DNA of 33,367 bases, taken from the NCBI GenBank assembly GCA_937922825.1, contig CALAJS010000217.1, forward strand, positions 1 through 33,367, in the 5' to 3' direction. Every line of letters begins with the position of its first letter. Position 1 is the first letter of the stretch. The notes beneath the pieces are model-generated. The model made no database searches. It was not told where the DNA came from and saw only the letters and a program-made list of their open reading frames with translations. Both the position numbers and the translations under genes were made by a program. Positions 7,629-8,870 of this stretch are shown here, in pieces. Origin of the DNA: an uncultured Bacteroidia bacterium (GTDB lineage Bacteria; Bacteroidota; Bacteroidia; J057; CALLMJ01).

Positions 7629-8870
7629 TTAATCCCGAGATTTCATATATATGTGTGCTTTGATAGCCTCTATTTCTTTATTTAATTGCTCTAATTTTCT
7701 TTTTAACTCTGCATTCTCCTGGATTAACTCCTCATTCTTTTTATCCAACTCCTGCACGGCTTTTACCAAAGGCATGATAAAATCTCCGTAACGCAAAGAA
7801 TACACTTCGTTAGCATTGCGGGGTTTCTCTAAGCCCGGAAAATCAAATCCGCAATGATTTGCCGCTTTTTCTACATCTTGGGCAAGAAAACCGATGAAAC
7901 GCTCTTGTTTTATTTGGCTATGGTCAATATTTTTGACGATACTATCGGGGGTGCCCCAGATTTGATGGAGTATTTCCGGGTTTTGATTATAAGTAACCGG
8001 CTTTAATTGTTTGATGAATGCCAGTCCTGGTACATTTTCCTGGATATTAAACTTATAACGTGCATCGGAATACGTAGTTATACTAGTTACTTGCGCCCGT
8101 ATTTGAGTAATAGCGGTATTCCCTAAAAGCACCTGATGATCGGCTGTACATTGCCCGTTAGCAATATTGGCGCCCAACATGGTTACATTGGTACGATTTA
8201 CCGTTGGATAACTATTGTATCCTACGAAAGTGCATTGATTAAAATCTACTCCCGTAGATCCATAACCTGCATACCTTCCTATTGCTGTATTATAGTTTCC
8301 GGTGGAATTGTAATAAAGTGCGCCTGAACCACTTGCTGTATTATAGCTTCCGGTGGTATTGGAAAAAAGTGCCTGGTAGCCCAAAGCAACATTGTCGTCT
8401 CCTGTCGTATTCGAATAAAGTGCTTGGTAACCAATACCTACTCCCCAATTGTTACTATGGTCATCGCTATTTCCTGCCTGGTAGCCTAAAAAAGTAGAAG
8501 CATCTCTCGTAATCCCTATTCGCCCTGCTTTTGCGTTATCAACTTTGAAGTTTAAGGGTGTGTTATCCGTTGTACCAATAAAATGTGTACCATCTACGGT
8601 GCCTGCATTACCCGTTAACGACCAACGATTGTTAAATGAGTTCCAATCTCCTGAACTTAATAACCCTGTTGCTGTTCCGCTTGCCGTAGCTATGTTGATG
8701 GTAGTTCCAATCCCTATTACCGCATTGGTTCCTCCTGTAATGGTAACCCCACTCGTAGTTGTACTTAAATTCCCCGTGCTTGATGCAACATACTTGGTGC
8801 CGTTATGCTTTAAAATTTTATTATTGCTTGAACCTGTAACGTCTATATCATTTGTATAATCCAAAATCAC
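7629..8870 (-). CDS. Phage tail-fibre-like protein with a C-terminal intramolecular chaperone (peptidase S74) domain.
   Basis: Repetitive Y(N/S)NTTGxxNTAxGxxALxxN units typical of tail fibres. Near the C-terminus TSITTYSDARYKFNIQENVPGLAFIKQLKPVTY matches the S-D-x-R-x-K autocleavage motif of endosialidase-type chaperone domains. A terminal coiled coil follows. Apparent GTG start with no signal peptide, so the N-terminus may be truncated. Confidence 0.65.
   Translation of the reverse strand: MILDYTNDIDVTGSSNNKILKHNGTKYVASSTGNLSTTTSGVTITGGTNAVIGIGTTINIATASGTATGLLSSGDWNSFNNRWSLTGNAGTVDGTHFIGTTDNTPLNFKVDNAKAGRIGITRDASTFLGYQAGNSDDHSNNWGVGIGYQALYSNTTGDDNVALGYQALFSNTTGSYNTASGSGALYYNSTGNYNTAIGRYAGYGSTGVDFNQCTFVGYNSYPTVNRTNVTMLGANIANGQCTADHQVLLGNTAITQIRAQVTSITTYSDARYKFNIQENVPGLAFIKQLKPVTYNQNPEILHQIWGTPDSIVKNIDHSQIKQERFIGFLAQDVEKAANHCGFDFPGLEKPRNANEVYSLRYGDFIMPLVKAVQELDKKNEELIQENAELKRKLEQLNKEIEAIKAHIYMKSRD

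Follow-up and report, generated by a model that had tools for sequence, protein, structure and literature searches.

The fibre ORF and its domains

An open reading frame (ORF) of 413 codons lies in a contig of an uncultured Bacteroidia bacterium (CALAJS010000217.1, assembly GCA_937922825.1), of which the whole stretch analysed, 33,367 nucleotides long, is called the window below. The ORF codes for a fibre-like protein with an S74 intramolecular chaperone domain and corresponds to a 5'-truncated copy of a gene for an exported bacterial fibre. Its parts, and the features around it, are listed in Table 1. The preliminary description of the locus had recognised NTTG/NTA repeats, an SDARYK chaperone motif and a terminal coiled coil. 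All three are real according to Pfam, the family alignment and an AlphaFold2 (AF2) model.

The S74 domain is matched by the Pfam family Peptidase_S74 ("chaperone of endosialidase", PF13884) over residues 268-337, with an E value of 1.4e-7 and 32.1 bits for a gathering score of 22. It opens on S-D-x-x-x-K, the Ser-Lys catalytic motif that stands at the start of S74 domains (PMC10769870). An alignment of 52 family members shows no variation at S268, D269, R271 and K273, and 119 of 120 members have a [ST]D-x-R-x-K motif. The AF2 model, which was built from the family alignment, has a confidence (predicted local distance difference test, pLDDT) of 88-98 over residues ~270-413 and is unreliable over residues 1-104. 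Its C-terminal domain has the fold of the solved S74 chaperones with their C-terminal helix. In a Foldseek comparison with the PDB, the top places were taken by all solved S74/ICA domains (MyRF 7dc3, GA-1 3gud, endoNF 3gw6 and T5 4uw8), the match to MyRF having a probability of 1.00 and a target TM score of 0.63. A sequence search of the PDB returned nothing at E ≤ 0.1. The last part of the module, residues 361-412, is modelled as one helix with pLDDT >90; many coiled-coil families of Pfam match this region, all below threshold.

Upstream of the chaperone module, the canonical repeat units are found at residues ~141-208 (GYQALYSNTTG-DDNVAL, GYQALFSNTTG-SYNTAS and GSGALYYNSTG-NYNTAI), following the pattern GYQALxSNTTGxxNTAx. 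They are mirrored in the DNA by a 51-nt period at 8282-8423, and in the AF2 model by a short strand every 17 residues. Tail-spike and tail-fibre profiles of PHROG also match the protein (phrog_4636 at 2.6e-37, phrog_1980 at 2.2e-19), covering only the C-terminal parts of these profiles, e.g. positions 459-762 of 763. Residues 1-95 have no Pfam or PHROG domain match of their own. They are homologous to internal parts of full-length relatives, such as residues ~190-280 of the 628-residue protein P0060.

Table 1. Parts of the fibre ORF and features of its surroundings (window positions).
Feature	Position	Strand	Remarks
ORF of 413 codons	7629..8870	minus	GTG start; corresponds to the C-terminal two-thirds of an exported S74 fibre protein of Bacteroidota
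11 nt supplying the GTG	8860..8870	minus	not homologous to the closest relative; 5' homology breakpoint at 8859/8860
Residues 1-95	8586..8870	minus	shaft segment without signal peptide; AF2 pLDDT <50
Collar motif WSLTGNAGT..FIGTTDN, residues 83-105	8556..8624	minus	family-wide consensus of the alignment; precedes the repeats
Nine 17-residue turns (NTTG/NTA repeats), residues 107-259	8094..8552	minus	modelled as beta-helix
SDARYK, residues 268-273	8052..8069	minus	predicted autocleavage site; Ser268 and Lys273 form the predicted catalytic dyad
S74 intramolecular chaperone / autoprotease domain, residues 268-360	7791..8069	minus	Pfam, AF2 and fold comparison
Coiled-coil helix, residues 361-412	7635..7790	minus	part of the chaperone module; AF2 and Pfam
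Terminator-like hairpin and T-run	8938..8960	minus	separates the DUF2279 gene from the fibre ORF
DUF2279 lipoprotein gene	9072-9953
Cluster of two tRNA-Lys(ttt) and one tRNA-Leu(gag)	5610..5859	plus	adjoins the group of broken genes
Broken 2OG-Fe(II) oxygenase gene	6007..6672	plus	fragments of 51 and 117 residues; match to the Pfam profile limited to its C-terminal part
Degenerate IS5-family transposase fragments	6727..7388	minus	several frames; most of the DDE domain gone

The Bacteroidota fibre family and its loci

The protein had been taken for an orphan. Judged from sequence comparison this label is misleading: a search of 5.8 billion proteins recovered at least 6,278 homologues, and thousands of relatives are encoded in Bacteroidota chromosomes. 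Where they bear a name it is "tail fiber domain-containing protein", and their hosts are Saprospiraceae, Chitinophagales, Cytophagales and other Bacteroidota metagenome-assembled genomes (MAGs). The best matches are 550-720 residues long and are 50-69 % identical to the C-terminal ~63 % of the query. A longer homologue, of 1,698 residues, is encoded by Flavobacterium stagni. Homology spans the collar motif, the NTTG/NTA repeats, the S74 domain and the coiled coil, with E values from 1e-175 down and identities of 50-83 %.

The relatives begin with a Sec signal peptide of the form MKK...(hydrophobic)...AQ. A 10-residue hydropathy peak of at least 1.8 is present within the first 35 residues in 84 of 93 full-length-like members; by the same measure the window protein reaches 0.10, the lowest value of all. 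After the signal peptide, the N-terminal domain is either of the type "NVGIGT..." (PTL_trimer, PF26696, in precomputed annotation) or of the type "YQAxxR...". In a third group the signal peptide is followed directly by the collar motif WSLTGNxGT. Collagen triple-helix repeats (PF01391) are inserted between the N-terminal part and the NTTG repeats in some members (P0063, P0044 and P0068), which fits a trimeric fibre.

The loci of intact members were compared for their gene content. They sit among housekeeping genes, often in tandem (L002, L012, L036), and no phage or contractile injection system (CIS) family of Pfam was found in any of the relatives' loci examined. A Por_Secre_tail domain, the sorting domain of the T9SS (type IX secretion system), is adjacent or fused in ten of the twelve informative loci, a criterion that is an association found in this analysis and not a curated one. 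In L002, four tandem paralogues stand between HtpG and pyruvate kinase/Obg and are followed by a small Por_Secre_tail protein. The Por_Secre_tail gene lies directly upstream of the fibre gene in L011, L012, L013-L015 and L035, and a small one immediately upstream in L004; it follows two tandem fibres in L036 and adjoins the fibre gene in L003. In L007 and L009 the fibre protein itself carries the sorting domain, downstream of its S74 domain and coiled coil, and L009 has an adjacent Por_Secre_tail gene in addition; the proteins P0089 and P0112 are fused likewise. In L006 and L008 a neighbour of this kind is missing. The adjacent partners share some homology that extends outside the sorting domain. 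Pairs of LytTR response regulator and histidine kinase of the Y_Y_Y type also recur beside fibre genes (L012 7276-9725 and 20316-21881; L036 3789-7686) and may be a dedicated regulator.

The family is one of bacterial, exported, T9SS-linked fibres that have their shaft repeats and folding module in common with phage fibres. No description of it was found in the literature on S74 together with T9SS, on "PTL" or on "tail fiber domain-containing protein". In known S74 proteins the module nucleates trimerisation of the upstream beta-helix, after which a Ser-Lys dyad cleaves before the Ser and frees the chaperone (Schulz et al. 2010, as summarised in PMC10769870; MyRF ICA structure, PMC8326128). 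By this model, an intact member would be exported by Sec through its N-terminal signal peptide and would consist of an N-terminal domain (PTL_trimer or the alternative), a beta-helical shaft of 17-residue repeats and the C-terminal S74 module. The latter would nucleate folding of the trimer, in the periplasm or at the surface, and would then cut itself off at the Ser of S-D-x-R-x-K. Display at the surface would depend on T9SS, through the fused or partner sorting domain.

The best functional analogue of intact members is a bacterial, non-phage one, the mosaic adhesive trimeric (MAT) fibres of Bdellovibrio bacteriovorus. Their S74 subgroup (such as Bd3182) combines a signal peptide, a conserved beta-rich N-terminal domain of ~130 residues, a trimeric beta-helix and an S74 domain with SDxxxK whose self-cleavage has been demonstrated (PMC10769870). 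MAT fibres differ in belonging to another phylum, in their size of about 1,000 residues and in that no T9SS link has been described for them. The genetic coupling of intact members to T9SS suggests a cell-surface or secreted fibre comparable to MAT fibres. Trimeric autotransporter adhesins, a name given by JGI to some family members, are alike in their NTxxG-type repeats resembling beta-roll heads and in their trimeric coiled coils, with weak similarities to YadA_head and UspA1-head. They differ in their YadA-type C-terminal anchor, which Pfam detects neither in the ORF nor in six full-length relatives, where S74 and a coiled coil stand instead. With MyRF (myelin regulatory factor), a eukaryotic membrane-bound transcription factor, only the module for trimerisation and autocleavage (7dc3) is common.

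Truncation and genomic setting of the window copy

Compared with its family, with which it shares collar, repeats, S74 domain and coiled coil at 50-83 % identity and the identical residues of S-D-x-R-x-K, and which carries automatic names only (PTL_trimer PF26696 with Peptidase_S74 PF13884), the window copy is without signal peptide, N-terminal domain, ~180 residues and T9SS sorting domain. The first two of these also separate it from MAT fibres. In alignment, residue 10 of the window protein corresponds to residue 190 of P0060. The closest relative comes from a MAG of the same study, where two contig ends (L004 and L005) each hold a part of its gene; identity to the window copy is 81 % in nucleotides and 83 % in amino acids. 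L004/L005 and the window differ in GC content (29.6-30.4 % vs 33.1 %), and their tetranucleotide correlation is 0.81 and 0.73 vs 0.92 within the window, which suggests, not conclusively, a related but different genome.

DNA homology to this relative is confined to 8859..7637, blastn aligning L004 10000-10509 with window 8859-8350; the flanks are unrelated, also in translation. The counterpart of residues 1-95 in L004 is the stretch after the second of two "TETDPVY..DVTGS..NGTxYV" repeats, and its frame runs ~180 codons further upstream through these repeats, an N-terminal domain and a signal peptide (MEVSIKISSLLIIALAGVVSVRVYGQ). A 1-nt frame break occurs in L004 at ~9432-9545, just after the signal peptide (MSYQ|AVIRNN), and is either an assembly error or independent decay. 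In the window an in-frame TAA stands 24 nt upstream of the GTG. It had been considered that a lost N-terminus might persist upstream in another frame. None was found there or elsewhere: tblastn of 119 homologues against the whole window gave only noise outside the ORF (E ≥ 0.03), and an N-terminal domain of the PTL_trimer or YQAxxR type is absent from the ORF and from every window frame. The fibre ORF is a 5'-truncated copy.

The same 413-residue ORF, with the same upstream genes, is present in an independent assembly (Logan ERR9287621) and also in ENA ERZ6863929. Between the window and the public ENA/NCBI contig L001, which represents another allele, seven single-nucleotide polymorphisms (SNPs) were counted in 18.9 kb. 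One of them, at 7955, falls in codon 306 and is a non-synonymous variant within the population: the conserved Gly306 of the IWGTPDS motif in the window is a Ser in P0001/L001.

The window is a piece of Bacteroidota chromosome with a GC content of about 33 %; it encodes a protein sorted by T9SS and housekeeping proteins (such as MiaA, a SpoU methylase and an enoyl-CoA hydratase). As the preliminary description had stated, it holds no baseplate, sheath or tube gene: Pfam and NCBIfam scans of 36 other ORFs found none of these and no other phage structural gene. No T9SS sorting domain is fused to the fibre ORF or encoded adjacently; the closest Por_Secre_tail gene lies 2.3 kb off on the other strand, with three genes between. 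The ~3 kb from the tRNAs to the hairpin contain incomplete genes only. The IS5 fragments among them match NCBIfam NF033580 at E 3.4e-6, far under the cutoff. The two tRNA-Lys(ttt) genes are identical and 88 nt apart, and were first given by the tandem-repeat program TRF as an 88-bp tandem repeat.

On the other side of the ORF, synteny with the closest DUF2279 locus (76 % identity) stops at the stop codon of DUF2279, where a MeaB/ArgK-type GTPase gene then follows in that locus. A conserved partnership of DUF2279 and the fibre was rejected, no fibre gene being present in any of 17 DUF2279 loci.

Several further genes of the window stand apart from the fibre. The minus-strand gene at 1008-3467 codes for an 819-residue protein (809 by the gene caller) with MVP_shoulder (E 7.5e-28), Vault_3 and Band_7/SPFH domains, and this bacterial protein is homologous to the major vault protein of eukaryotes. 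A type III-A CRISPR-Cas cluster with Csm6 HEPN, RAMP, Csm4, Cas10/Csm1 and Cas6b occupies 18985-26820 on the minus strand; no part of the window yielded a CRISPR array. A tyrosine recombinase resembling XerC/D is encoded at 17912-18811. Two 44-nt stretches, 5540-5583 and 11189-11232, are 70 % alike, contain TTG...TAATTTTG and sit upstream of genes starting at 5563 (minus) and 11213 (plus); they look like a shared Bacteroidota promoter architecture.

Fate of the copy and meaning for the family

The ORF is best explained as what a recent 5' truncation has left of a gene for an exported trimeric fibre, a remnant that has probably lost its function. A rearrangement would have removed the signal peptide and ~180 N-terminal residues, and a fortuitous GTG would open the remaining 413 codons. 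The copy is read as a remnant because it is without signal peptide, N-terminal domain and T9SS partner, because a terminator precedes it and because its neighbours are debris. Its product probably cannot reach the surface, since it has no export signal, no recognisable promoter and no T9SS partner. If translated, it would stay in the cytoplasm, where it could still trimerise and cleave itself at S268, and would not reach the surface by the route of the family. As for the promoter, TAnnTTTG, the -7 motif of Bacteroidota, does not occur within 150 nt upstream of the fibre ORF. It occurs within the same distance upstream of the start in 11 of the 32 listed window ORFs of at least 100 residues.

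Several observations weigh against the loss of function. The absence of the -7 motif is weak evidence, about two-thirds of the listed window ORFs, many of them inside operons, being also without it. The ORF runs over 1,239 nt without internal stop or frameshift, and its catalytic motif is intact. Compared with L004 and L005, dN/dS is 0.09 and 0.08. A relative-rate test showed no acceleration (outgroup agreements of window vs relative, 811 vs 562 and 749 vs 727), and the protein deviates at three of the 65 columns that are at least 90 % conserved, ranking 19th of 52. The drift expected of a pseudogene in the dN/dS, relative-rate and conserved-column tests was not seen. These tests cannot date the truncation, as dS to L004/L005 is about 1.15 and most of the divergence may predate it. 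The undecayed coding sequence can be explained by a truncation that is very recent, or else by selection that still acts on the shortened protein. By our own estimate, a neutral ORF of 1.2 kb in AT-rich DNA would stay open for only ~1 % or less of neutral divergence, and the truncation would therefore have to be recent. The population diversity of 0.04 % is compatible with this.

In a rival reading the shortened, signal-less protein still functions: it would fold and cleave itself in the cytoplasm and be used there, for example as a fibre mounted in trans on a CIS encoded elsewhere, or it would be released by lysis. The intact ORF and catalytic motif and the lack of excess substitutions speak for such a function. 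S74 fibres without signal peptide do exist in some operons of extracellular CIS (eCIS), including that of the Bacteroidota Microscilla marina (eBAP2 group; PMC8213781, PMC12923769). These resemble the ORF in their phylum, their S74 C-terminus and the missing signal peptide. They carry an N-terminal baseplate-attachment domain, and they differ in the eCIS operon around them. The N-terminus of the window ORF is homologous to an internal part of the shaft, and its start codon falls within the 11 nt of unrelated sequence at the homology breakpoint. The close relatives are all signal-peptide proteins, coupled to T9SS and not to CIS, no CIS gene is present in the 33-kb window, and the upstream terminator and the missing promoter motif add to this. 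We consider a cytoplasmic function unlikely. The use in trans by a CIS had been one of the two options of the preliminary description, and nothing points there, the relatives being Sec-exported, T9SS-coupled and located in housekeeping DNA.

A copy without promoter and proper start could also serve as a silent donor cassette, from which gene conversion with expressed full-length paralogues would vary the shaft or tip of a surface fibre that cleaves itself and is coupled to T9SS, in the manner of pilS or vls cassettes. This would account for a sequence undecayed despite its missing expression signals. Family members occur in several copies, including tandem paralogues, and vary in their number of repeats; among predicted targets of programmed inversion in bacteria, genes annotated "tail fiber domain-containing protein" are over-represented (PMC9881135). 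The window, on the other hand, holds in its 33 kb a single partial copy without a full-length partner; the ORF is not flanked by long repeats, inverted or direct, and no recombinase adjoins it, the nearest tyrosine recombinase lying 9 kb off and looking like XerC/D. Two short relatives that might have passed for further cassettes are of another kind. P0021 (409 residues; L016) is a frameshift artefact on a low-coverage contig whose genes are split by frame breaks, and the S74 ORF of 331/355 residues in L012 is a complete short variant with its own signal peptide. We regard the donor cassette as improbable. If it were true, the Bacteroidota would have in this fibre system a counterpart of the MAT fibres of Bdellovibrio, and no description of such a system was found in the searchable literature. 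Programmed inversion or a shufflon was rejected, no substantial inverted repeats being found around the ORF and no adjacent invertase.

The other option raised at the outset, that of a relic, is the better supported of the two insofar as the gene is 5'-truncated. That the relic should be the last gene of a decayed prophage, a genuine tail fibre or spike integrated beside the tRNA cluster, is very improbable. The PHROG matches at 1e-37 to 1e-19, the tRNA cluster 1.8 kb away, the adjoining debris of an insertion sequence and the first description of S74 domains in phage spikes could all be read in this sense. Phage spikes and fibres (K1F/endoNF 3gw6, the GA-1 neck appendage 3gud, the T5 L-shaped tail fibre pb1 4uw8) do have the S74 fold and motif, the beta-helical region upstream and the C-terminal helical bundle of the window ORF. 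They are however components of virions, with N-terminal domains for attachment to the particle, no signal peptide and a phage context, and the nearest phage proteins are only 28-35 % identical over residues ~120-404 (56 of 50,697 phage records). Viral contigs were scanned as well, and none of those scanned encodes a relative. The closest sequences, at 50-83 % identity, belong to proteins that are exported and whose chromosomal genes have no phage context; the window contains no other phage gene, no att-like repeat and no integrase next to the ORF.

An assembly artefact, i.e. a chimeric join at a repeat-rich fibre gene, is hardly credible. Genes of this kind do break assemblies, that of the closest relative being itself split over two contig ends in its MAG, and the end of the Logan contig is reached about 316 bp downstream of the ORF. 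The same junction of DUF2279, terminator and ORF is however shared by at least two assemblies that were built independently (ENA ERZ6863929 and Logan ERR9287621), and the breakpoint lies in unique sequence, not inside the repeats.

Read as a recently truncated remnant, the window ORF matters mainly as a warning against inferring a phage or an injection system from a "tail fibre" with S74 that a Bacteroidota chromosome encodes. The coupling of the family to T9SS is more interesting than the ORF itself, and no paper describing this link was found. If the coupling is real, the order of self-cleavage and secretion matters, as self-cleavage would remove a fused sorting domain, which lies downstream of the cleavage site. 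The concept of MAT fibres would then extend from the predatory Bdellovibrio to a major environmental phylum.

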